From assembly GCA_040776945.1 (NCBI GenBank), contig JAXGZN010000002.1, positions 672,001-736,000 on the forward strand: a stretch of 64,000 bases of DNA, in the 5' to 3' direction. Source of the stretch: Methanomassiliicoccaceae archaeon (GTDB lineage Archaea; Thermoplasmatota; Thermoplasmata; Methanomassiliicoccales; Methanomassiliicoccaceae). Both the position numbers and the translations under genes were made by a program. The notes beneath the pieces are model-generated. The model was given only the letters and a program-made list of their open reading frames with translations. It did no database searches and was not told the origin of the DNA. How positions within the stretch are numbered: the stretch's first letter is position 1; each line of letters begins with the position of its first letter. Positions 20,334 through 62,041 of this stretch are shown here, piece after piece.

Positions 20334-20933
20334 TCAACCGCCATTGTGTTTCAGCATCTCCTGTACCAGGGCCATGATGTCAGAACAGGTGGCATTCGCA
20401 TCGATATTGCCGCGAACCTCTCCGCTTGGAAAGCCCTCGGTTATGACGTTGATGTATAGATTTCCCGCGTCCAGCTCGCCAATGAACTTGGCCATTGAGG
20501 CCCCGGCCATCGGTCCGGTGAGGGTACGTTCGGTAATGGAGCCCAGAGCGATAATGCCTTCATCATCCTCGCCATGTCTGGTATGCATTACAAGGGAGAG
20601 ATATGCGACCGCTTCACCGGTCTCCCTTCCATCCCGGGCCCAATTGATGCTCACCTGGGTTACGTCGTCGTCAAGCTCAGAGACGTGGACCATGTAGCAT
20701 ATCTCGTTCAGACCGTCATTGAGCCAAAAGACCGCGACCCCAGTGCCTTCAGTATAAACTGGGTGAGGTCTCACTTGGTCTCCGAACAGCGGCACTATTA
20801 CGGCTGGGTTCCAGCCGTGCGTCCCATCTTTTTCGGTCTGAGCATTCGTGGCAGTGAATATCACAGCCACGGCCGCGACGACAGCAACGAGCAAGCCAAA
20901 TGCGATCATTACCTTGCCAAGTTCCATTCTCAT
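20334..20933 (-). CDS. exported CHRD-domain protein
   Basis: Signal peptide; GNLYINVIT..FPSGEVRG. Confidence 0.82.
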   Translation of the reverse strand: MRMELGKVMIAFGLLVAVVAAVAVIFTATNAQTEKDGTHGWNPAVIVPLFGDQVRPHPVYTEGTGVAVFWLNDGLNEICYMVHVSELDDDVTQVSINWARDGRETGEAVAYLSLVMHTRHGEDDEGIIALGSITERTLTGPMAGASMAKFIGELDAGNLYINVITEGFPSGEVRGNIDANATCSDIMALVQEMLKHNGG

Positions 20934-21059
20934 CCCTCGTCCCTCGACCTCTGACCTTCAGGATTAATAATTAGCTCCTCAGCTAAGGCGAGGGTTAACT
21001 GTCAAGTCGCTGAGATAACGAAAATCGGCGAGTTATCGAACAGCGGGGACAACCGCCCT

Positions 21060-21496
21060 TGGCCGAGCCTATCGGGCCTGCCCGCGCAACGATGATGAGC
21101 GTCCGAGCATGAGCGACCTATTATGCAATGGTTAGACGTCCATGTGTATGGACGTGACTTTGTTCAGAGTCGGTGGCGTTCGGCCGTCCCGTCCAGATCT
21201 AAAACAGAAAGGAATCGGCCATCGAGGTACTTCAGAGATGTGCCGCCCTTGGTCCGAACATTAACTCATGCGTTCCTATGACATGATCTGCGCCGCGGCG
21301 GGAGCCATATGATGTATCGGGCCGGCGTCCAGCTCGAAAAGATAGCCTGAATATTCGGGCATTCGGACAGTAGGACGACCGCCCATTACATTGGGCTCGA
21401 TATAAAGGATATGAGCGCTCGTATGGAGATTCAGTGTATGTGGGAATTTCCGCGTTTCACTGAAAATAGTAAGAAATGAGACAGGTCGGGAAATTG
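21060..21496 (+). pseudogene. degraded tyrosine integrase remnant
   Basis: From 21282: HDLRRGGSHMMYRAGVQLEKIA*IFGHSDSRTTAHYIGLD (HxLRR, GH and catalytic Tyr region); upstream QWLDVHVYGR fragment; left edge approximate. Confidence 0.8.
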
Positions 21497-21513
21497 GTGG
21501 ACAGAGCTGGATT
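21497..21513. repeat. att copy of tRNA-Ala 3' end (left junction)
   Basis: gtggacagagcTggatt vs gtggacagagcGggatt at 31493-31509, 16/17 identical, direct orientation. Confidence 0.85.
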
Positions 21514-21810
21514 ACTTTCCAAGAAACTAACTGGCTGGAGCCCGTTTTGAACCACGTTCGGTTCACCACCCCCGATCGAGGGTTGATGAGAAAGTAAATC
21601 AAACCTTTTCCTCGCCTTTTTTATAAACCGCCTATTCAGCACTAGTATGCCCACTCCTCAATACTCCCCTTATTTTCCTTATCCTCTTAATTATTATCAA
21701 CACTCTCACCTCATTGAATTAATGACCTCAAAGGTAGAGCAGAGCAAAGGGGATAGCTTAGTACTAATAGGTCGATCAGGACCGATCGCCTCGTGCGTGG
21801 TTCCATATGT

Positions 21811-22725
21811 TCATACCGGGCCTGCAGGGCTAAAGTTGGCAAACTTGCCAATCCTGAGCCTTTCTGATCGGTAGACCTCCCTTATGCCCATCCTGTGAAG
21901 TCTCTCACGATCCGGTACCTCGTCTCTGAGTTCCCTCTGTGCAAGGACGCTTCTCACAGAATCGGTCGAGAGCATTCCTTCCCAAATGGGCCAGGAGAAG
22001 AAATCCTTCTTGTTCATTCTTGTGAAACCTGTTGTCTCTAGCTGACCATCCCTTACAACGCTAGGGAATAGTTGAAGTCCCCGATATGCCAACAGGTTGG
22101 CAGCCCAGACCGTCTTGGGCGGCGAACCGCTTGGATTTTCCCACATGAGCGCATATCTCCGGTCCTCGACGGGGTCCCAGCGCATAGAGTGCTTAGGATC
22201 GTTGTATGTCCATCTATCAAAGAGGCATTGATGGATCTTCTTCTGATCTACGCATCCGATGAGGTCCCTGACGGTCTTAAGAAAGTATTGATGGCCTGAC
22301 CCCTTGATGAAACAGAAAGGGGTGACATATATTTTTCCGCTTTCCTCATCCATACATATGGTACAGCCGAAATTCGTCATCAGATCGACAGAGGTGCGAT
22401 CGGTCGAGCGAGCTTCATCCACTACCTTTATGGCATGTGCCTTGAACACATCCTGACCAACAACGACGTTATCTCCCAGTTCGAGCTCTGTGGTCTTTTT
22501 CTTTAAGCTTTGGTAGATACGGTCCGACAACTGCTCATCTGTAATGGGATTTTCCACTCTCAAAACAGGGTGCCACGTATCTTCCTCTGACCATGACATT
22601 CGTGCACGTATGGAATGATCGGAGGATATGACCGCAAGAACCCCCAATGCGCTTAGATAGCCCAGTGGGTTGATGCCGTCAAGCCCTCTCAGTACTTTGT
22701 CTGATCCAGACGGATCGGAGCTCAT
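21811..22725 (-). CDS. type I-G (I-U) CRISPR-associated protein, Cas3-extension/Cas8g-like
   Basis: GLDGINPLGYLSALG, RWDPVEDRRYAL, ANLLA..GL.LFP, FSWPIW; overlaps the cas3 stop. Confidence 0.75.
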   Translation of the reverse strand: MSSDPSGSDKVLRGLDGINPLGYLSALGVLAVISSDHSIRARMSWSEEDTWHPVLRVENPITDEQLSDRIYQSLKKKTTELELGDNVVVGQDVFKAHAIKVVDEARSTDRTSVDLMTNFGCTICMDEESGKIYVTPFCFIKGSGHQYFLKTVRDLIGCVDQKKIHQCLFDRWTYNDPKHSMRWDPVEDRRYALMWENPSGSPPKTVWAANLLAYRGLQLFPSVVRDGQLETTGFTRMNKKDFFSWPIWEGMLSTDSVRSVLAQRELRDEVPDRERLHRMGIREVYRSERLRIGKFANFSPAGPV

Positions 22726-23942
22726 TCTAGGCCCTCCTCATCTGCCGACTCATATATTAGATCGTATTCACTTGAGCGATGGTCAGCCAACCTGAGGATA
22801 GCTTCGAGGTAGGCTTCCCCCCACCAGCCAAACCGCCTTATGCCTTCCCAGAATCGATCGCCAACACCGCTGCCCACTAGATCCATTCCAGTATCGCTGG
22901 AGTGCCTTAGAATCGAACCTCCGGTTTCGAGGGTGACCTCGCGAGGGCTTTGGTCCCAGACCACAGGGGCGAATGGTCGGCAACGACCGTGGTGGCTTGA
23001 GATCAGGTGGAGAATCAGGTCGCGTTCAACACCGAGCTCTATCTGTTCCGCCAAACGCGCCGAAAGCAGCTCGTGCCTTCCGCCCTTGGGGTAGCCTGCC
23101 CTGATTCGTGCCTGTTCGTATTGGGTGAACGTGGATGCTAACCAATCCGATTTCGCCAATAGATCCGTACCTGCGGCTGCGGCCCTTATATCTCCGCCGC
23201 GAAGGAGGGCCTGAAATCTTATGTCGGCTTTGCCTGTGTCATGCAAAGCTGAGGCCTTTTTCATTGGAACAACAAACGAGCTTGGCAGGGTTTTTATGCA
23301 AAACTCGCTGGCGATTCGTTCAACACTATCCGAGTGAGAGCTAAGAGTCACAGGTGCGGCTGGTCCATCTCTCGATCGCACTCTTCCTTTCTCGCCCCAA
23401 ATGATCAATCCTTGTCCCTGAGGATATGGAACTACGTTGGTGCGTTTTAGACTGGCCACGCCGTTCACGATCTCCCCCATTCGCCCGGGCAAGCCACTAG
23501 CGTTCGTCAACTCGCTCAATGCGTCCCTTAGATCATCTACGAAGTCGTTATCATATGATCTCTCGGCAAGATTGGGATCATTGATCAGATCTAGGATCCT
23601 ATCTTTCACCCTCGATGCTGGCCAATTTGAAATCAATGACGGATGTAGTCTCAGCAGGACTCGTTTCCCCGTTACGAATGCAGCCTCATCTCCACGGTCA
23701 ATGGCGGCCGAGTTGGGAGGAACGTCTGGGATGTGTCCGAGCGACTCTCAACCTCCCATGGAAGAGGGCAGAACAACGATTTCCCCCGGCTGTACCTCAC
23801 TAGGATTGTCTACGACCCTGCTCTCAGCACCGCCCCTCCACACGAGCATGTGCATCGGACACATCGGCTCTCCCCCCTCATTAGAGGTAAACGCCCCCTC
23901 TACGTCCGTCAGGTCCGAATCGTGGTTGACCGTTCTCACCAA
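22722..23942 (-). pseudogene. cas3: truncated type I-G Cas3 (C-terminal HD nuclease part only)
   Basis: HSDSV, HDTGKAD, RHELLS, HHGRCRP, LADH; in-frame TGA at 23748-23750 joins two track ORFs; no helicase motifs remain. Confidence 0.8.
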
Positions 23943-24137
23943 CGGACATATTGAGAGACGAGGACTGGGAGATTATCGGCGGAAGAACGATGAGATGTTC
24001 AAGGGTGGTGCTGGCCCGTAGGAACTGGTCGCGACCGGCGCGACACCTATTAATACGAATTAAATATTCTTGTTACTAATGCACGGAAAATGCTGGGTTC
24101 GGTCCTCCGGAGGAGTCCATGCATCAGAGGCTCTTAT

Positions 24138-24995
24138 ATGCTGGACGTGAAAAACATCGAGTTCTCGTACAATGAGGAGAGGGTCCTGGAGGATGTATCC
24201 TTTCAGGCCGTAGAAAATGAGGTCATATCTATCATGGGACCGAACGGCGTGGGCAAGACCACCCTTCTCAAATGCTTGTGCAACTTCCATCGTCCCCAGA
24301 ATGGGAAGATAACCATAGACGGTAAGGATGTGTCGTCCATATCGAGCCGGGAGCTGGCCAAGCATATAGGATATGTTCCGCAGCGGGCGAACACCACCAG
24401 GTCGACGGTGTTCGATTCGGTCTTGATCGGACGACGACCTTACATAGAGATATCAGCCACCAAGAGGGACCTCGAGGTCGCATGGAACGCGCTGGACTCG
24501 CTTGGCCTGGGTAGCCTGGCCTTGCGATACGTCGACGAGATCAGCGGCGGCGAGCTTCAGAAGGTGCATATCGCCCGGGCCATGGTGCAGGAACCCCGAA
24601 TACTGGTGCTGGACGAACCAACCAACAACCTTGACATCGCCAATCAGCATGTCACGTTGCACAATATAATTGATGCCGTGCGTTCCAGGGGGATGTGCAC
24701 GATAATGACCATGCACGACATCAACTTGGCCGTGCATTATTCGGACCGGCTCATGTTCATGAAGGGAGGGCGCATCTTCGCCTTCGGGGGACCGGATATT
24801 ATCGACGAGAGGTTGATCAAGGAGGTATACGGGATAGATGCGGACGTGATCATGCATAAGGGCGTCCCCTTCGTCATCCCCCATACCGCCAAGAACGGTC
24901 ATCCGAGATACACGCATAACCACGTTCATGCGGTCGATCACGACCCCTCAGACCACGTGCATGAGGCTCTTGGAATAGCCCAGGCCAAGGACTGA
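24138..24995 (+). CDS. FepC/BtuD-type ABC ATPase with His-rich tail
   Basis: GPNGVGKT, ISGGE, LDEPT, MHD; tail HTAKNGHPRYTHNHVHAVDHDPSDHVH. Confidence 0.92.
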   Translation: MLDVKNIEFSYNEERVLEDVSFQAVENEVISIMGPNGVGKTTLLKCLCNFHRPQNGKITIDGKDVSSISSRELAKHIGYVPQRANTTRSTVFDSVLIGRRPYIEISATKRDLEVAWNALDSLGLGSLALRYVDEISGGELQKVHIARAMVQEPRILVLDEPTNNLDIANQHVTLHNIIDAVRSRGMCTIMTMHDINLAVHYSDRLMFMKGGRIFAFGGPDIIDERLIKEVYGIDADVIMHKGVPFVIPHTAKNGHPRYTHNHVHAVDHDPSDHVHEALGIAQAKD

Positions 24996-24996
24996 G

Positions 24997-25788
24997 CTAC
25001 ACGTCCCATACCAGTAGTCTCATCCTGTTCAGGCACCTGAACCTGAACTCCCCACCCTCGACCATCGGTTCCAGCACCTTTCGTACGGCCGGTTCGACCT
25101 CCATGCCCTTCCCATAAGGCCTGAAGTCCCGGACAATCTCCGAGACAGCCGTTTCCAACGGAATGGAACGCTCCACCGGGGTGCTGAACTCGGTGACCTC
25201 CGGCCTCCTGCCGATCGATCTGAGTTTCCTCTCCACCAGGTCGGACCCCCTTTCGGCGAAGGAGTAATTCTTGCCCATCTCCCTCCAGACCTCGGCGTGC
25301 AGGTCATCCCAGCCGTTGACGATCCACATGATGTGTGCGCAATGGTGGTCGGTCCAAGCTTCCATCCTTTTTAGCCCTTCGACGGACCCTGTCCCGGGAC
25401 ACAGGGAGGACACAACCGCCGAGCTCCTCCTCTCCGGCTCGTACTCCATGACGTCCGCCTTGACCAATGTGACATTGCTATATCCCATATCTCGCACGGA
25501 GCTCGAAAGGCGGTCCAGCATGACCTGGGAGGTGTCTAGGCCCACCACTGACCTGACCAAGGGTGCCATTGGGAGGGTATACGTTCCAGGACCGCAACCG
25601 AGTTCCAGTACGGTCGCATCGCAGTCTAGGACCCCGGTTCGGTGCAGATGCCCGACGATCTCGTTGACCATGGACCCCTGCTGCGTTCCCGAATACCAGG
25701 AGGCGATGTCGTCCCAGAAGTGGAGCGCCCTCTGCCTGTCGAACCCCTCCCCGACGAACGGGTGGGACCCGGACCGTTGACAGTTCAT
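24997..25788 (-). CDS. class I SAM-dependent methyltransferase
   Basis: VLELGCGPG, GLDTSQVML. Confidence 0.88.
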   Translation of the reverse strand: MNCQRSGSHPFVGEGFDRQRALHFWDDIASWYSGTQQGSMVNEIVGHLHRTGVLDCDATVLELGCGPGTYTLPMAPLVRSVVGLDTSQVMLDRLSSSVRDMGYSNVTLVKADVMEYEPERRSSAVVSSLCPGTGSVEGLKRMEAWTDHHCAHIMWIVNGWDDLHAEVWREMGKNYSFAERGSDLVERKLRSIGRRPEVTEFSTPVERSIPLETAVSEIVRDFRPYGKGMEVEPAVRKVLEPMVEGGEFRFRCLNRMRLLVWDV

Positions 25789-26876
25789 CGCAGTACCTTC
25801 CTCTTCTTCCTGGTCCCCCTTATCAGAAGGTAAATGAACAGCGGTCCGCCTAGGAACGAGGTTATTATGCCCACCGGCAGCGTATAGACCAGCAGGTTCT
25901 GTCCTACGCAGTCCGCGATGAGCAGGATGATGGCTCCCAGCAGCATCGAGCCCGGGAGCACATACTTATGATCGTTTCCCAGGAACATCCTGACGATGTG
26001 CGGACCGAGCAAACCTATGAAGGCTATTATTCCCATGAACGAGACCACGATAGATGTCATTAGTGCTGAGAGGAACAACGTCTCCATCCTAAGCCAATCG
26101 ACCTTGATACCCAGGGACATGGCCACGTCGTCCCCGGCGTCCAAGGCGTTGAAGTCCCATCTGCGCCACAGGAAGTAGGCGATGACCGCCATGGAGATGA
26201 TGGCGATCAAGGTGAGCTCACCCCAGGACGCCTTTCCAAGGGAGCCGAACTGCCAGAAGACTATGGCCGAAAGGGCGTAATCGTTGTAGATGTACTGAAG
26301 CATGCTTATGCCGGCCGAGAAGATGGAGCTGAGGGCCACACCCGCCAGGACCATGGTTTCCGCGCTGACCCTGGTCACCTTGACCAGGAGGATGATTATC
26401 ACCGTGGCGATCAGGGCCCATGTGAACGCGCTGGCCGAGACCAGGTACGGATTGTTGATGAGTATGGAGGCATGGCTTTGCCCGACCACCAGTCCTCCTC
26501 CCAGTGCTAGAATGCCTAGGGAAGCGCCGAAGGCCGCGGCGTTCGAGATGCCCAGAGTGTAAGGTGAGGCGATTGGGTTCCTGAGGACGCATTGCATCAC
26601 CGTACCCGCAACGCCCAGGGCAAACCCGGCGAACAGGCCGGAGACGATCCGGGGCAGATACAGGTTCCAGAACAGTATCACATCGACCTTGGAATTCTGT
26701 GGGTTGTCCTTATCGAAAATGACCTGGACTATCTCCTCGAACGAAAGGGACCCCAGGTCGATCTTGAGCACGGCTATCGTCGAAATCAAGAGAAGTAGCG
26801 CCAAGGCCACCAGGAATAGGTTCTTCCGCCTTGAATGGGCTAGATACCCTTCTATTCCTCCATTTCTACTGTTCAT
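25785..26876 (-). CDS. FecCD-family ABC permease
   Basis: LPRI..G, RNPIASPYTLGIS, G.IAFIGL, LPVGIITS. Confidence 0.92.
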   Translation of the reverse strand: MNSRNGGIEGYLAHSRRKNLFLVALALLLLISTIAVLKIDLGSLSFEEIVQVIFDKDNPQNSKVDVILFWNLYLPRIVSGLFAGFALGVAGTVMQCVLRNPIASPYTLGISNAAAFGASLGILALGGGLVVGQSHASILINNPYLVSASAFTWALIATVIIILLVKVTRVSAETMVLAGVALSSIFSAGISMLQYIYNDYALSAIVFWQFGSLGKASWGELTLIAIISMAVIAYFLWRRWDFNALDAGDDVAMSLGIKVDWLRMETLFLSALMTSIVVSFMGIIAFIGLLGPHIVRMFLGNDHKYVLPGSMLLGAIILLIADCVGQNLLVYTLPVGIITSFLGGPLFIYLLIRGTRKKRKVLR

Positions 26877-26949
26877 CGACCGCCACCATGCCTGACCTGA
26901 GACGCTAGTATGATAAAAATATTGAGCTGGCCTGGGCCAGCGAAGTGGT

Positions 26950-28224
26950 TTAACGCATCGCCGAGAAGGTCATGGTGCCTTCTTCGGATATGAAAATCTC
27001 CCCGTACACGGGATTCGCGCGGCGCACCATGTACATGTTGTTCATGTCCATGTATATGGATGTCGGCTCAGACGGCGCTGGGACATTGGTCGCGGTTATA
27101 TCACGGTTGGACATGTGCGAGCCCAGGAACGCGTCATAGACCGCGTTAACCTTCTGCTCGAACTGCTCCTCGGTCAATAGCCCGTGGGCGTCCTTGAGGA
27201 CCTGGTACGCGGATATCAGGACGTTCTCGAAGTTCATGCCAGTCCATATGTACGGGAAGGCCACATAGGCTTCGTGCCCGATGAACAGCTGCAGGATGCC
27301 CTTGGCCGTGTTGTCCGTGCTCATGTAGAGCCCGGTAGCATCCATGAAGAGGAGAACCTCATCGCCCTCCGCCTCTGCCGCTTGTATGCCCTCCTTGATC
27401 TTGGTCGCCGAATAGGTGCTCACACCCGACCCGTTCATGTCCATGCCCTCGTTGGCCATGATGTTCTTCACCCCGGCCAGGGCGAAGGGCATGTAGTAGG
27501 CGATGGACGAGTCCGGACCGTGGGCTCCATTGTAAGCCAGGGAACCGATGTAGGCGCTGACGTTGGTCGCGGCCTGAGTGGCGATGGTCCTAATGTCCTG
27601 AACCGTATCCTCTATGGCGGCAAGGATCTCCTGGCCCCTCTTATCCATGGCCAGCACCTTGGAGAGCAGGTCAATCTGATCCCTCAGAACGTCCACAACC
27701 CTGAAGGTCACCGGTTCTAGGAAGGTGTAGACGTTGGCGATGGCAACGACGTTCAAGCCCCCATCCAGGAGCGATTGGTACTCGTTGGAGTAATCGGTCT
27801 TGAAGGTTACGGGCACGACCACCAGGGACGGCTCGGCGGTAAGGATGTTGGCCACGTCATCCACGGTGATCCCGCAGTTGGTATGGGAGAAGTCATTGGC
27901 ATCGGATTCGTTGACATCCGCCAGAGCGCGCCCGTGGTACATGAACGACTTGCCCATGAAGTTGGTCTTGTCGTTGATGTCTATCATAATGCACTTGTCA
28001 GCAAGGCCGAAATAGGTCATCCATCGGAAGGGGTCCTGGCCTATCGCCACGATGCCGCGGTCCAGATTGGTGACGGGTTGTATCTCTCTGCCTGCGAAGT
28101 CGATGTCCTCGCCTATGACCGATTCGTTCCCATCGTCCGGCTTTTGGAGCAGAATGCTTCCGCCTATGGCGGCGATGATGATTATCGCAACAGCAGTTAT
28201 TGCGAAGTAGATCTTCCTATTCAT
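26950..28224 (-). CDS. ABC substrate-binding protein (class III, metal-chelate type)
   Basis: N-terminal anchor, DFAGREI, PFALAG..N; co-oriented with the permease. Confidence 0.8.
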   Translation of the reverse strand: MNRKIYFAITAVAIIIIAAIGGSILLQKPDDGNESVIGEDIDFAGREIQPVTNLDRGIVAIGQDPFRWMTYFGLADKCIMIDINDKTNFMGKSFMYHGRALADVNESDANDFSHTNCGITVDDVANILTAEPSLVVVPVTFKTDYSNEYQSLLDGGLNVVAIANVYTFLEPVTFRVVDVLRDQIDLLSKVLAMDKRGQEILAAIEDTVQDIRTIATQAATNVSAYIGSLAYNGAHGPDSSIAYYMPFALAGVKNIMANEGMDMNGSGVSTYSATKIKEGIQAAEAEGDEVLLFMDATGLYMSTDNTAKGILQLFIGHEAYVAFPYIWTGMNFENVLISAYQVLKDAHGLLTEEQFEQKVNAVYDAFLGSHMSNRDITATNVPAPSEPTSIYMDMNNMYMVRRANPVYGEIFISEEGTMTFSAMR

Positions 28225-28491
28225 GCGGATGGGAACTGATTTTGCATAGAAATACTTTTTTAGAATTCGTGTTACTATTATCATAATGTTTTTAAAAAAA
28301 TATTACGATGTAAAATTAATGAAGTCTCCCGACGGAGGATGACCGTCTCGAACTGGCGATGACCTTGACGGACGCAATTGTTCTAAGAAAGACATCAATA
28401 ATCCTTATGAACAGAACTGTTTCATACTGCGGATCGCCTCAATGAGGCATCCTCATCCTAAGGACGTGACGAAGGGATGAGGCGAACGGAG

Positions 28492-30455
28492 ATGACGGAC
28501 TGGATCGATGAGTGGAAAAACGCCCATGAGCGGTCTATGCTCAAGGTCACCCCGGAGAACGAAGAGAGATGGAAGGTCTTTTAGAGCCTCGATGCCGGGT
28601 ATTATCTTGATGAGGTGAGGTCCGAACCGGCCTTCTATGACCAGGTGATCGACCGCCTGTGCATTGAGGGTTGGGTCCTTGGGAATGACAAGGTCCTCGA
28701 GATAGGCTGCGGACCAGGCACCCTGGCTCTTCCCTTGTACTCAAGGGTCGGTTCAGTTACCGACTTGGACGAGGCGGAGGGACACGCCCATTCCCTAAGC
28801 AAGATGCTCCTCGACTCGCCGAACAGGTTCCCCAATGATGCAAGAGCGATGATCGCCAAGGCTTTTCACGCCAAGGTGACCACCGTCAGGGAGTTATCCA
28901 GAACTGCAGACAATACCTTCCTGACCATCAAGGAACCAAAGCCCCCTGCCCTGGAACCGAACCTAACGAGTCCAGCCAAGGTGTGTGACTTGCTACAGAC
29001 GCCATCTGTCCATCACTTAATCGCCGAATCAGACGGCATAAACCGTTTCTTGAAGATGGCTAAGGAGCAGGGTGAGGAGGCGGCCATAACGGCCAAACGA
29101 GAGGAGCTAGCCCCCCGTGTGGAGGCACATGAGAGCAAGATCAGGGAAGATGAGGAGGCCGACATTGCCGCACTCGAGGATGGTTCCTGGTGGGACATTG
29201 TGAACAGTGCGATCGATGAACTTATCGCAGGGGAGCCGCAGCTTAGGAAGGTCATCGTCTTCTCGGCCCTATCGGCTGGATTGAGCGGTAAGAGACAGCA
29301 CCTGATGGCCATCGGTGATTCTCAGACCGGGAAGTCTAATACATTCCGATCGATTGGTTCACGGCTATTTTCTGACCGCTTCATTGACGTAGCAGCAATG
29401 AGTGCAAAATCACTCTATTATGCCACCGATACAGCGGGGGATCCAAGATTATTCGACGGCAAGATCATCCTAGTCGATGAGTTCGCAGACCAGAGCATCG
29501 GGACTCAGAACTTCGTCAAGGCCCTGATGTCCAACGGAACGGAGAAGCTTGCCAACATGACCGTTGATGAGCACCGCAAGTCGAAGACACAGTCCATCGA
29601 GGGCATTCCCGTCATGTGGTTGACTTCTGCGGAGGTCCTGGAGGACCCCGAGGGGCAACTCATGAACCGTCCGCTCATCGTGAACCCTGATGAATCTGCC
29701 GAGCAAACGAGGAAGGTCCTCAACTTCCAGCGGGAAGCGGTGAGCACAGGTTTGCTCAAGACCTCGGACTCCAGAATATCAAGGGCCAGGCGTCTCCTCA
29801 CTCACATCCTCAAAGAGAAGGATTTCGTCATCTACAATCTGTTCTCTAGCCATGTCCAGATATGCGAGGACGATGCCAAGGCCAGGAACACCCTACCAAT
29901 GTTCTTCATCCTGGTTGGCGCCATCGTCTACGCCCACCGCTTCGCTCGCCAGGTCATTAAACTCCCTGACGGGAGGAAGTTGCTTATGGCTAGGTGGGAG
30001 GATAATGTCAAGGCGGCGGAGCTGTGGCAGTGGGCCAGCGGGCCAAAGTCCACTGGACTGCCCAACCGAAACATCGAGCTCCTGAAAATCCTGCCGGCAT
30101 TTGCTGGAGACATCACCGGAGGCTTGGATCTCGATGTTGTCGTGGAGATGTACGCGACCAGGACCGGCCGTATGGTCAGCCACAAGATCATACGGAACTA
30201 CCTCTCGGAACTGTCTACCAAAAATATGGAGACATACTACGAGGATGCTCAGGGCACCAACTGTGGTGCTCGACCGGTTCAGCTCACATCTCTCCAACGA
30301 AGTCCCAGCTGCTCATTGGGATGGATTGCGATGAGGGTAAAGAACTGCTGGACGATGCCCTGAAATCGTTTGAGGAGGCCATCTCCCAACTCCCCATCGA
30401 AATTCGAATTGAGGAGCTAAGGAAGAGAGTCTTCGAAACGTCTCGGAGGTGGTGA
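28492..30455 (+). pseudogene. chimera of a methyltransferase N-terminus and an MGE P-loop ATPase (primase/helicase-like)
   Basis: ATG 28492, in-frame TAG 28582, VLEIGCGPG, then switch near 28780 to GDSQTGKS and ILVDEF; probable frameshift near 30255. Confidence 0.65.
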
Positions 30456-30525
30456 GCTCCCCGTCCCTCTTTGCAGATGAGATAGTGCTATCTAACCGCA
30501 GTGTCCTAACACGAGATGACTGAGA

Positions 30526-31512
30526 ATGCCGTCGAAGGATCGGTGCCTCAGTGAAGCGGTAGAAAAATTTATAGAAACCAAGAGAAAGAAAAAGAGGTCG
30601 GAACATACGATAAAAGGCTACAGCTGGATAATCGGTAAAGTAAGCCGAGAACTAAGGGAGGCGGGTTATGATCCCCATCCGAAGCGTTGGACAGAGAAAT
30701 CCGTGGACTTCCTACTCGATGATGTCTGTAGCGAGTCTAAGCCTGGGGTCACCAGGAGGGAATTCAGCATCCTGAACGCCTACCTAAAGGTGAACGGGAG
30801 CAGCATCATTGAGGATATGGACATCGAATGGCAGGAAGATGGCCGAATAAATGTCCACTGGCTCAGCCTGAACGATGCTAGGAGAATCGAGCAGGAAGCC
30901 AACGGCTTTGAGAGGCTGGTAGTCCACTTGGAGCTGCACATCGGCCTAAGACGAATCGAAGTTTCGAGGCTGAACGTGTCCGACATCCAACTGGGATACT
31001 TCAACATTCTGGGAAAGGGTCGCCGAGGAGGTAAGTGGAGGCAGAATCCATTCGACATGGAAACGAATGCCGAGCTTGCTTACTTCTTCGAGCTTCGGGA
31101 CATGGAGATAATGAAGGCCAAAGCAAAGAATCCTGCTGTGGTCATCTCCGACAACCTGTTGATCTACGAGCGGGGCGGGAACCTTCATCCCTTCAAGCGC
31201 AGCACCGTGGACAACATGCTGAAACGCATACAAGAGCGGACGGGGATTAAGTTTTCGAACCACGTCCTAAGGAGGCAATTCGCCAAGGAGCTGCACATTT
31301 CCGGCGTCCCGATAACTCGCATCTCCGAGCTGTTGGGGCATAAGGACGAACAAACGACCCGCCTTTACATCGGGATAGACATGGATCTAAAGGCCGATGC
31401 TATGAACCAGGTCGCCCAATGGAGAGCACAACAAAGGGCCCAAATGGGCCTGCCCCGGAACGGGGCATTTTTGAGTGAAGCCAGAATAGTGAGTGGACAG
31501 AGCGGGATTTGA
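30526..31512 (+). CDS. tyrosine integrase whose 3' end overlaps tRNA-Ala antisense
   Basis: GLRRIE, GKG, HVLRR, LGH, TRLY; last codons (GQSGI*) lie in the tRNA. Confidence 0.93.
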   Translation: MPSKDRCLSEAVEKFIETKRKKKRSEHTIKGYSWIIGKVSRELREAGYDPHPKRWTEKSVDFLLDDVCSESKPGVTRREFSILNAYLKVNGSSIIEDMDIEWQEDGRINVHWLSLNDARRIEQEANGFERLVVHLELHIGLRRIEVSRLNVSDIQLGYFNILGKGRRGGKWRQNPFDMETNAELAYFFELRDMEIMKAKAKNPAVVISDNLLIYERGGNLHPFKRSTVDNMLKRIQERTGIKFSNHVLRRQFAKELHISGVPITRISELLGHKDEQTTRLYIGIDMDLKADAMNQVAQWRAQQRAQMGLPRNGAFLSEARIVSGQSGI

Positions 31513-31566
31513 ACCCGCGGCCTCGACATTGCGAATGTCGCGATCTTCCAGCTGATCTATCTGCCC
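31494..31566 (-). tRNA. tRNA-Ala(CGC)
   Basis: Acceptor GGGCAGA/TCTGTCC-A with G3:U70, anticodon arm CGACA-TTCGCAA-TGTCG, GGTTCAAATCC. Confidence 0.95.
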
Positions 31567-60844: not shown

Positions 60845-60922
60845 GGGCCCGTAGCTTAGCCTGGCTGGAGCGCCCGGCTGATAACCGGGAGGTCAAGAGT
60901 CCAAATCTCTTCGGGCCCACCA
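60845..60922 (+). tRNA. tRNA-Ile(GAT), CCA encoded
   Basis: GGGCCCG/CGGGCCC-A-CCA, anticodon arm CCCGG-CTGATAA-CCGGG; upstream aaacctttaaaa promoter. Confidence 0.95.
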
Positions 60923-61039: not shown

Positions 61040-62041
61040 TCACCGAACTATAAGCTGCGGGCGATACCGGGGCATCGCCCTGTACGGTTCCTGCTCCATT
61101 TTTCTCCTCAGGTCGGTGAGGTAGGTGTCCACCAACCACTGGGCCTTCGCGAGGTCGTCCACCGACAGACCGGCGTACTGTATGGTCTGCTGCGGACTGG
61201 CGTGGCCCATTGCGGCCGATAGGTCCTCTATCTCGACCCCGGCATGTCGGTGTATCCGGCACCCGGTCCGCCGCAGGACGTGGTTGCTCAGGTCCTCCGG
61301 CTTTATCCGGGCGAGGATGCCGACCTCCTTCACCATGGTGTCCACGGCCGTCTCCTGGTACGCTCCCAGCTTCCAGCCGTATTGGGCATAGATCATGATG
61401 TTCTCCGGGATCTTCTGGTCCGGCTTGACCTCCAGCGCGTGAGAGATCAGCACCTCGCGGTAGCGGCTGTACTGCTCGAACACCGCCAGGGTCTCTGGGG
61501 CCCATGCCAGCGTCCGCCACTTCCCGCCGAGCCGTCCCTTGCCCCTCACCTTGAGGATCCCCATCTCCACGTCCTGAATGGTGAGGCGCATGACCTCGAC
61601 CCTTCGGAGCATGAGACGGAGTTCCAGGTGAATGAGCATCTTTTGTAGCGGGGTCTGCGCGGCGTCCATGAGCACCACGCCCTCCTCGTCCGTCAGCCAC
61701 TTGGCGTTCGGGCGAGTGTTCGGAGGCCAGGGGATCATCATTCGCTCCACGACGTTGTTGCCGTGGAACTTGAGATACTGGCCGATGATGCTCACTTGTC
61801 GTCGGTTGACCATCGGGCTCAGGTGGGAGTAGAGCTCGTTTCGGAGCAGGTCTATCTGCTCCTCCCCGACCTTCTTGGGGGTGGCCTCTAGGCCAGCCGC
61901 CCTCCATGCCTGAGTAGCCAATGATACGAGACGCCCGTACTCGTCGGTCGTGCTCTTGGTCACTCCTTTCCTGTTGGTTAAGGCGTTTAGATATGCGTTC
62001 AGTTGGGCATTGAGATACCTGTCCCGTCTGTCGGATGGCAT
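61040..62041 (-). CDS. tyrosine integrase
   Basis: LRRVE, GKGRLGGKWR, HVLRR, MGH, IQY; same family as 30526..31512. Confidence 0.93.
   Translation of the reverse strand: MPSDRRDRYLNAQLNAYLNALTNRKGVTKSTTDEYGRLVSLATQAWRAAGLEATPKKVGEEQIDLLRNELYSHLSPMVNRRQVSIIGQYLKFHGNNVVERMMIPWPPNTRPNAKWLTDEEGVVLMDAAQTPLQKMLIHLELRLMLRRVEVMRLTIQDVEMGILKVRGKGRLGGKWRTLAWAPETLAVFEQYSRYREVLISHALEVKPDQKIPENIMIYAQYGWKLGAYQETAVDTMVKEVGILARIKPEDLSNHVLRRTGCRIHRHAGVEIEDLSAAMGHASPQQTIQYAGLSVDDLAKAQWLVDTYLTDLRRKMEQEPYRAMPRYRPQLIVR

Follow-up and report, generated by a model that had tools for sequence, protein, structure and literature searches.

An archaeal integrase gene with the att core in its last codons: the tail displaced by integration looks conserved as DNA

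In the window, which is the whole stretch of 64,000 nucleotides of a Methanomassiliicoccaceae archaeon that was analysed, a tyrosine integrase gene ends inside a tRNA gene, and a second copy of the shared sequence lies about 10 kb to its left. An earlier note, made from the sequence alone, proposed that integration removes a C-terminal tail of 27 residues from the enzyme, and that this isoform switch may control directionality or stability. The locus thus raises two questions: does the integrase have two lengths, and is the displaced tail maintained as a peptide or as DNA?

The integrase end, the far att copy and the island

The integrase ORF (30526–31512, + strand) encodes 328 amino acids in the integrated state, and its final 20 nt are antisense to a tRNA-Ala(CGC) gene (31493–31566, – strand, ARAGORN). 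This tRNA gene is the attB target and its 3' end forms the att core. The attR core, a 17-nt identity block (31493–31509, + strand), makes up the final six integrase codons; the protein ends in ...SGQSGI, and its TGA stop is supplied by the tRNA T-loop (ATT followed by TGA). A Pfam scan at E<=0.01 gave PF00589 alone, at residues 118–283 (E 3.3e-18), and Phage_integr_3 (PF16795) was absent; an XerA-like NCBIfam match was below cut-off. The tyrosine recombinase catalytic set R..K..HxxR..H..Y is present, with R142, H246, R249 and Y281 invariant and K170 and H272 nearly invariant among 79 sequences. Every catalytic residue is upstream of the att site; the integrated ORF (residues 1–328) accordingly has a complete catalytic domain, and 27 codons are displaced by integration.

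The 17-mer 31493–31509 has one further copy in the window, the attL core (21497–21513, + strand), which is identical at 16 of 17 positions. The mismatch, a T for G at 21508, lies within the core. Two matches within 3 mismatches were present in the window, against a mean of 0.29 in shuffled sequence. In the frame of the integrase, the left copy runs into TFQETNWLEPVLNHVRFTTPDRGLMRK and reaches a stop at 21595–21597. These 27 codons and their stop (21514–21597, + strand) are on the right (P') arm of attP and would lengthen the integrase from 328 to 355 amino acids in the excised circle. The earlier note was therefore correct that the integrase ends on antisense tRNA-Ala sequence, that the second att copy stays open in the integrase frame, and that excision adds 27 residues with the catalytic motifs intact either way. 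Its caution that 27 open codons can arise by chance was also well placed, as the probability is estimated at (61/64)^27, i.e. about 0.27, and is not significant alone; the open stretch owes its significance to relatives that share the arrangement, not to its length. On paper, the integrase gene has two legitimate lengths and the isoform switch is real, its function being unproven.

A 5'-truncated integrase pseudogene (about 21249–21521, + strand), comprising the part from HxxR to the end, lies at attL. In-frame stops interrupt it, and it passes through the att core in the other frame. To judge by its sequence, an earlier insertion left it behind as a relic, and as it terminates on the left att copy, the site would have been used repeatedly. 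The pseudogene, the mismatch inside the core and the mosaic nature of the 10-kb 'element' were absent from the earlier note.

The island body (21811–30455) carries a Cas8g-like gene, a C-terminal fragment of Cas3g, an ABC transporter of the FecCD type together with a methyltransferase, and a P-loop ORF of 582 aa whose family is unknown. Some island genes are host-like, and the repeat is short and has one mismatch, as would be expected if the 17-nt match and the open frame were coincidental and no element existed. This explanation is extremely improbable: 0.29 copies are expected even when 3 mismatches are allowed, and one with a single mismatch is much rarer still; the left copy is the exact endpoint of the integrase relic, many genomes have this same right arm after their att copies, and the GC content is 0.49–0.59 within the island vs 0.60–0.68 outside. 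The 10-kb element, a mosaic, appears to be fixed, and at tRNA-Ala(CGC) it is probably immobile now.

The public data checked were assembled contigs only, in which the island is covered by three DNA runs, each from a different study. The attL side was bridged by one X8 contig (20800–21594) and the attR side by one X9 contig (29481–32200). Neither the circle joint (31509 to 21514) nor the empty site in which the island is skipped was found in these contigs; contigs drop rare forms, and the missing junctions therefore say nothing about excision. A joint from 24791 to 31390 was disregarded, being present in a single run with a 24-nt side. RNA contigs covered 30433–31005 and 31106–31509 on int and none lay on 20800–21942, which speaks neither for nor against a switch.

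The arrangement in relatives and the right arm of attP

Homologs of the integrase (E<=1e-30) were found in 78 of 261 genomes of Methanomassiliicoccales. The att-in-integrase-end design is common to a family: among 34 distinct 3' ends of integrase genes, 15 share 20–64 nt with an antisense tRNA-Ala or tRNA-Ile. For one of the 15 (L035), ARAGORN called a tRNA-Ser. Far att copies were located for eight elements, and all eight have an in-frame extension, of 17 to >45 aa, with a Trp at codon +7. The block shared by attP and attB is 17–33 nt long, from the tRNA 3' end to the first T-loop bases. In every element with a far copy found, identity ends at GATT(T); the integrase is therefore kept up to ...G-x-x-G-I and receives its TGA stop from the tRNA T-loop. 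All sequence on the right side of the core is shifted by integration and comes to lie at the element's far end.

What is shifted includes a conserved attP right arm of about 125 nt, which contains the 27-codon extension and remains conserved beyond its stop. Nearest to the core is an inverted repeat of the core's first 8 nt (21515–21522, + strand), which matches at 6 of 8 positions here and at 8 of 8 in L064; in family arms the mean is 4.6/8, vs 2.1 at control offsets. This repeat may be the right-hand integrase half-site, 9–10 nt from the left one. We considered whether it is a copy of the tRNA 5' acceptor strand, including the G3:U70 wobble; this is true in some arms, and the idea was set aside, the L064 arm being a perfect palindrome. 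Next comes a degenerate direct repeat of attB, i.e. of the core and its T-loop continuation (21531–21553, + strand; 16/23 identical), with a score in the family of 11.1/23 vs 5.6. It contains an invariant CTGG, the source of the Trp codon. A palindrome with two 6-nt stems and a 6-nt loop (21548–21565, + strand) overlaps its end; the stems covary across the family (66.5% paired, 25 double-sided changes), a level that none of 500 shuffles attained. Past the stop lies a conserved block (CAAACC..TTCC) followed by a T-run (21598–21623, + strand). Outside the genomes, a search of IMG/VR returned one relative (L059) and one chance match, and a pattern scan of metagenomes found the arm in 5 of 28 loci, the remaining loci being unrelated sequence.

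The reading that we favour, at a probability of about 0.6, is that of an integrated element with the att core in the end of int, the right arm being kept for DNA functions and the tail peptide being incidental. The 27 displaced codons would be the attP right arm, with a second, inverted integrase half-site, and the degenerate attB copy may bind further integrase. The palindrome would be part of the same arm, and the block with its T-run is a possible terminator of the int transcript in the circular form; both the half-site and the terminator are roles suggested by sequence features. These DNA functions would maintain the conservation of the arm. In the circular form, the tail peptide would be a by-product of a frame that chances to stay open past the core, and selection on it would be mostly for harmlessness and limited length.

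The palindrome and T-run could act in another way, by forming the int mRNA 3' end in the circle only, according to the logic of lambda sib; in the integrated state, int transcription would enter the tRNA gene antisense. In most arms a covarying hairpin is indeed followed by a T-run, 35–110 nt beyond the core, integration necessarily parts both from int, and retroregulation of int by lambda sib is established, as stated in the accessible text of PMC5300877. However, the hairpin is short (about 6 bp), and it is more stable on the int-antisense strand in 19 of 24 arms, a misfit with an RNA element of the int-sense strand; a palindromic protein-binding site would show equal covariation, and an Rfam scan of 21300–21800 at E<=1 gave no match. 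Such a switch on the int transcript is quite unlikely.

Peptide or DNA conservation of the tail

Random post-att extensions among relatives would have counted against the proposal of the earlier note, and the outcome is divided. The extensions are not random: 24 of 28 arms have a Trp at codon +7, the other 4 retain the boxes with a shifted frame, and many tails are 25–28 aa long, with a similar stop position and similar ends (..P.R...(R/K)). What looks conserved is the DNA, without a coding signature, rather than the peptide.

The tail peptide could be a working part of the integrase, a Trp tail that tunes activity, directionality, multimer contacts or turnover and is lost on integration. In addition to the Trp in the eight cognate reconstructions and 24 arms, and to the alike stops and tail ends, frame 0 is open over 17 codons in 20 of 21 arms, the expectation based on column composition being 0.62; in each of frames 1 and 2 the figure is 6 of 21 arms, as expected. 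Synonymous changes are in excess in frame 0 of the four closest pairs, a small sample of overlapping pairs, with a synonymous to non-synonymous ratio of 12:14, vs 4:20 and 2:21 in the other frames. Frame openness and these pairs weakly hint at a translation constraint, and the IntP and IntX forms of phage Mx8 offer a possible precedent by analogy (PMC6070905, in the part available).

Other measures do not behave as for a peptide. Tail entropy by codon position was 1.26/1.21/1.08 (24 arms), position 3 being the lowest; there is no third-position excess. In int itself the values were 0.96/0.74/1.40, and position 3 was the highest in 242 of 242 windows. Over 14 pairs, the share of synonymous codon differences was equal in all frames (27/122, 25/123 and 23/117 in frames 0, 1 and 2). 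At the DNA level, each conserved stretch can be accounted for by the inverted repeat, the attB-like repeat or the palindrome. As only one codon exists for Trp, the invariant TGG cannot tell DNA from protein constraint; the residue encoded in part by the base before it varies, yet this base is C in 23 of 24 arms.

Natural proteins point in the same direction. Trp was at +7 in only 4 of 13 natural ORFs that extend past the core, two natural proteins (P0017 and P0159) read the arm boxes in another frame, and the other core frame is found in an integrase that shares 65% identity with P0017. Intact relatives have tails of 2–8 aa or in another frame. The three shifted genomic arms (L068, L072 and L083) all place the Trp in the frame of the other-frame integrases, an outcome expected 1 time in 8 by chance. 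For the other-frame integrases, the 20 kb upstream contained no far att in either G017:C24 or G031:C46, and none was found elsewhere in G031; an additional match in G017 was rejected, being another tRNA-Ala on which a separate integrase gene ends. The P0017 locus was not found among the 261 genomes. The tail follows a variable linker of about 20 residues and is predicted to be unstructured: in an AlphaFold2 monomer model of P0007, a natural long form, pLDDT is 51–57 over the last ~30 residues, vs a mean of 92.6.

In conclusion, of the switch proposed in the earlier note, the two lengths stand; control of directionality or stability by the tail is unproven and on balance unlikely, because the conservation is DNA-like and intact relatives have short or other-frame tails. 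A tail peptide working as part of the enzyme is, likewise, rather improbable. To our knowledge, no excisionases are known in archaea. A broader possibility, which we regard as doubtful, is a built-in state switch, in which the Trp tail or the hairpin, joined to int in the circle only, would alter integrase activity or expression; the family would then be a third archaeal class, 'tail-swapping', with directionality obtained without a separate excisionase.

Comparison with known systems

In phage lambda, sib and int are parted by integration. The lambda core lies outside the int ORF, and the target of sib is a bacterial mRNA, on which it acts by way of RNase III. The family seems to resemble lambda in having a palindromic, possibly structured element 3' of attP that is beside int only when unintegrated, and differs in that the core is inside the int ORF and the hairpin is more stable on the opposite strand. 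In mycobacteriophage BPs, the gene concerned is the repressor, and the part lost is a degradation tag. Its attP is within the gene, and integration shortens the product (PMC4557955, accessible text). Here also the product of the att-crossed gene is shortened by integration, but this gene is the integrase; no recognised degradation tag was found in the integrase tail, the sequence of which varies.

Archaeal integrases have been grouped as 'suicidal', when att splits the gene, or 'classical', when att is outside it, in a review whose accessible text mentions neither Methanomassiliicoccales nor Thermoplasmata (PMC8371274). According to the same text, SSV1, pTN3 and pT26-2 target tRNA genes with att within the int ORF, as a compact int-att module, and SSV-type suicidal integrases carry Phage_integr_3 (PF16795). 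The att site is inside the int ORF here as well, but the gene is not split into non-functional Int(N) and Int(C); the whole catalytic domain is kept and PF00589 is the sole match, and the integrase is therefore not suicidal. As with classical archaeal integrases (pNOB8 and SNJ2 types), int is intact after integration into a tRNA gene. In SNJ2-type elements the att core is 3' of int at a measurable distance (PMC5861418, in the portion available), whereas here it is within the ORF. By its sequence, the Methanomassiliicoccales family is between suicidal and classical integrases, with the core in the last codons, a stop from the tRNA and a whole enzyme. No prior description of this arrangement was found among openly available articles.

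For annotation, these integrase genes legitimately have two lengths, their 3' ends give island borders to the base, and the conserved right arm can be used to locate the far border. As a natural experiment, the family could also show whether archaeal directionality is controlled by a swapped C-terminus or by a displaced 3' element.

In myxophage Mx8, a long C-terminal stretch of the integrase is reportedly exchanged for a short one, with altered activity. In this phage attP is inside int, and integration creates a new int 3' end without inactivating the enzyme (accessible text of PMC6070905 and PMC4383910). The layout here appears alike in sequence, integration replacing the int 3' end; unlike in this bacterial phage, the swap is confined to a tail that follows the catalytic domain, and the stop comes from the tRNA. 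The element of the window can be described as a variant, and not a suicidal one, of the design in which att lies inside int, as in Mx8 and SSV.

The att site in the integrase 3' end and its island

The window contains a tyrosine recombinase ORF of 328 aa (30526–31512, plus strand; PF00589, E 3.3e-18, residues 118–283), whose final 20 nt overlap, in antisense, the 3' end of a tRNA-Ala(CGC) called by ARAGORN (31493–31566, minus strand); the TGA stop of the integrase is supplied by the tRNA T-loop. The 17-mer at 31493–31509 has one further match in the window, at 21497–21513 with 1 mismatch, and these two were the only matches found at ≤3 mismatches (mean of 0.29 in shuffles). Past the left copy, the integrase frame stays open for 27 further codons (TFQETNWLEPVLNHVRFTTPDRGLMRK) up to a stop at 21595–21597. 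The two structural claims of the earlier note, an att site inside the integrase 3' end and a same-frame extension of 27 codons after the left copy, were therefore borne out. GC content is 0.49–0.59 between the att repeats vs 0.60–0.68 outside.

The single att mismatch lies inside the core, the segment shared by the tRNA 3' end and the far copy. The core is unmutated in L097 and L108, the two metagenomic loci with the arms closest to that of the window, and on this comparison the window mismatch looks derived. As tyrosine recombinases require matching crossover regions, this copy is probably fixed in place. Public DNA contigs from three runs of three studies cover the island, one spanning attL and one attR; no circle or empty-site junction was found among public assembled contigs, which cannot reveal rare forms.

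An integrase pseudogene that lacks its 5' part and contains in-frame stops (~21249–21521, plus strand) spans the HxxR box to the end of the gene. It lies immediately 5' of the left att copy and ends exactly on it, with the core read in another frame, and its best match is P0130 (59% identity, E 6e-20). This pseudogene was left by a previous insertion at this tRNA and, since it ends on the left att copy, the tRNA-Ala has been used at least twice. The island is a mosaic. Its left end bears what remains of a truncated CRISPR-Cas locus (21811–23636, minus strand): a type I-G Cas8g-like gene (NF049934, E 2e-72) accompanied by only the C-terminal ~200 residues of Cas3g (profile positions 666–854 of 854), with no helicase part of Cas3g beside it. 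The region 24090–28780 encodes a FecCD-type ABC transporter, a SAM methyltransferase and a short CpaM-like methyltransferase fragment, with which a 582-aa P-loop ORF matching no known family begins; these three look like corrinoid-related cargo of a host type. The top depth figure (22) in one metatranscriptome belonged to a contig on the binding-protein gene (26948–28203), a figure that is given once per contig and cannot rank genes.

A second integrase (61142–62041, minus strand) shares 33% identity with the first and has its stop ~100 nt short of a tRNA-Ile(GAT) (60845–60922), so that integrases reaching into the tRNA and stopping before it coexist in one genome.

Spread of the arrangement in Methanomassiliicoccales

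An integrase homologue at E ≤ 1e-30 is present in 78 of the 261 genomes of the order. When the 3' ends of 34 distinct integrases from 40 loci were compared, an antisense tRNA overlap of 20–64 nt was observed in 15; such a tRNA lies ≤150 nt away in five, 13 have none and one runs off its contig. The arrangement is a family trait. Eleven of the 15 overlapping ends read ..G-x-x-(G/E)-I and stop at the T-loop TGA; the other four extend further into the tRNA because they use another frame or meet a T-loop without TGA. The overlapped tRNAs are Ala-CGC, Ala-TGC, Ala-GGC and Ile-GAT, plus one, at locus L035, called as a 94-nt tRNA-Ser(ACT) by ARAGORN (1607–1700). The L035 integrase end, ..SGPSGI, matches Ala-type cores, and this tRNA may be intron-containing or miscalled.

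The far att copy was located for eight elements, with an identity of 16–33 nt that always ends in GATT(T). At tRNA-Ala(CGC) of one genome (G032:C1, ~103400–130500; L054, L055, L015) the elements form a tandem array: att copies occur at three sites upstream, and two integrases, each from a different subfamily, are accompanied by a fragment of an integrase. P0003, the inner integrase of this array, reads into its neighbour's DNA and acquires an unrelated 25-aa tail.

The sequence beyond the core

In all eight reconstructed junctions the integrase frame runs on into a tail whose codon +7 after the core is Trp, often followed by (L/I)-(E/D), and many tails are 25–28 aa long and alike at their ends. 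We then searched for the core followed by any non-tRNA sequence, a pattern that does not presuppose a tail. It gave 28 hits, distributed over 21 of the 261 genomes, and the unbiased count of hits with TGG at codon +7 is 17; by eye, a sorting that leans partly on the feature itself, 20 were att-arm-like and eight GC-rich ORF-like. In metagenomes, 5/28 loci have TGG at codon +7, including two close relatives of the window arm. The extension is not random among relatives; its conservation pattern, however, is DNA-like and not peptide-like.

A functional role of the tail peptide in the integrase is unlikely. It would account for the openness of frame 0 over a stretch of 17 codons, seen in 20/21 arms, vs 0.62 expected from column composition (an excess overstated by the relatedness of the arms), unlike frames 1 and 2, which are open in 6/21 each, as expected. 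All eight cognate pairs are in frame, and the four closest pairs, which overlap and give small counts, show 12 synonymous to 14 non-synonymous differences in frame 0, and 4:20 and 2:21 in the others. The invariance of TGG decides nothing, because it is the sole Trp codon. Against a peptide role, tail entropy by codon position is 1.26/1.21/1.08 (n = 24), position 3 being the lowest; the corresponding integrase genes give 0.96/0.74/1.40, with position 3 highest in 242/242 windows of 14 codons. The synonymous share over 14 pairs is equal across frames 0, 1 and 2 (27/122, 25/123, 23/117). The base preceding TGG is C in 23/24 arms, and the residue encoded there varies (N, D, I, V, L, Y).

Nor is the peptide itself kept everywhere. 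The conserved boxes are present with a shifted frame in 4/28 arms, among them L059, on an IMG/VR contig of 29.9 kb where the integrase is intact, the tail is only 8 aa long and no tRNA lies within 3 kb. Among natural ORFs running past the core into non-tRNA DNA, 4/13 have Trp at +7 (P0007, P0012, P0059, L024); of the other nine, some may have arisen as hybrids where elements join in tandem. The tails of natural proteins P0017 and P0159 match the same arm in another frame, and the core frame differs between integrases 65% identical. L068 and L087, on two contigs of G018, have near-identical arms and identical left flanks but tails in different frames, owing to a one-base deletion; strain variation inside a single genome bin may explain the pair. 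An AlphaFold2 monomer model of P0007, a natural long form (alignment of 79 sequences), has a mean pLDDT of 92.6, and of 51–57 over the last ~30 residues (linker, tRNA-encoded residues and tail).

Arm conservation therefore reads as a constraint on DNA, not protein. Nucleotides 2–9 past the core repeat its first 8 nt in inverted orientation (mean 4.6/8 vs 2.1 at control offsets; 8/8 in L064). Tyrosine recombinases use two half-sites around a centre, and the core start and this repeat would form two integrase half-sites around a 9–10-nt centre. From +17, a degenerate direct repeat of attB (mean 11.1/23 vs 5.6; 16/23 in the window) is followed by a palindrome whose stems covary (25 double-sided changes and 66.5% pairing, a level that 0/500 shuffles reached). 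Conservation goes on past the tail stop, with a CAAACC..TTCC block and then a T-run. Every conserved stretch of the arm can be read in terms of DNA.

In lambda, integration separates sib from int. By analogy, integration would part the hairpin and T-run from int, acting as an RNA-level switch; this seems unlikely, as folding of the hairpin (arm alignment A2 columns 53–72; window 21547–21566) gives the greater stability for the int-antisense strand in 19/24 arms (mean -8.7 vs -6.7 kcal/mol).

Comparison with known systems

The state-dependent isoform switch proposed in the earlier note follows from the sequence, but the conservation pattern of the arms does not support a role for the tail peptide. 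Mx8 has its att inside int, which integration provides with a new 3' end without killing the enzyme (PMC6070905), and Islander notes that Mx8 and SSV integrases extend across attP (PMC4383910). Archaeal suicidal integrases also have att inside int, with a split gene and PF16795 (PMC8371274); SNJ2-type elements have the core downstream of int (PMC5861418), and BPs has attP inside the repressor gene (PMC4557955). No prior description of the arrangement in Methanomassiliicoccales was found in the open-access articles searched. The Methanomassiliicoccales family shows neither gene splitting nor PF16795, two of the traits that define suicidal integrases. Its design is like that of Mx8, but the family is archaeal and swaps only a post-catalytic tail. 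The window case is a family-wide, non-suicidal variant of the known att-inside-int design.
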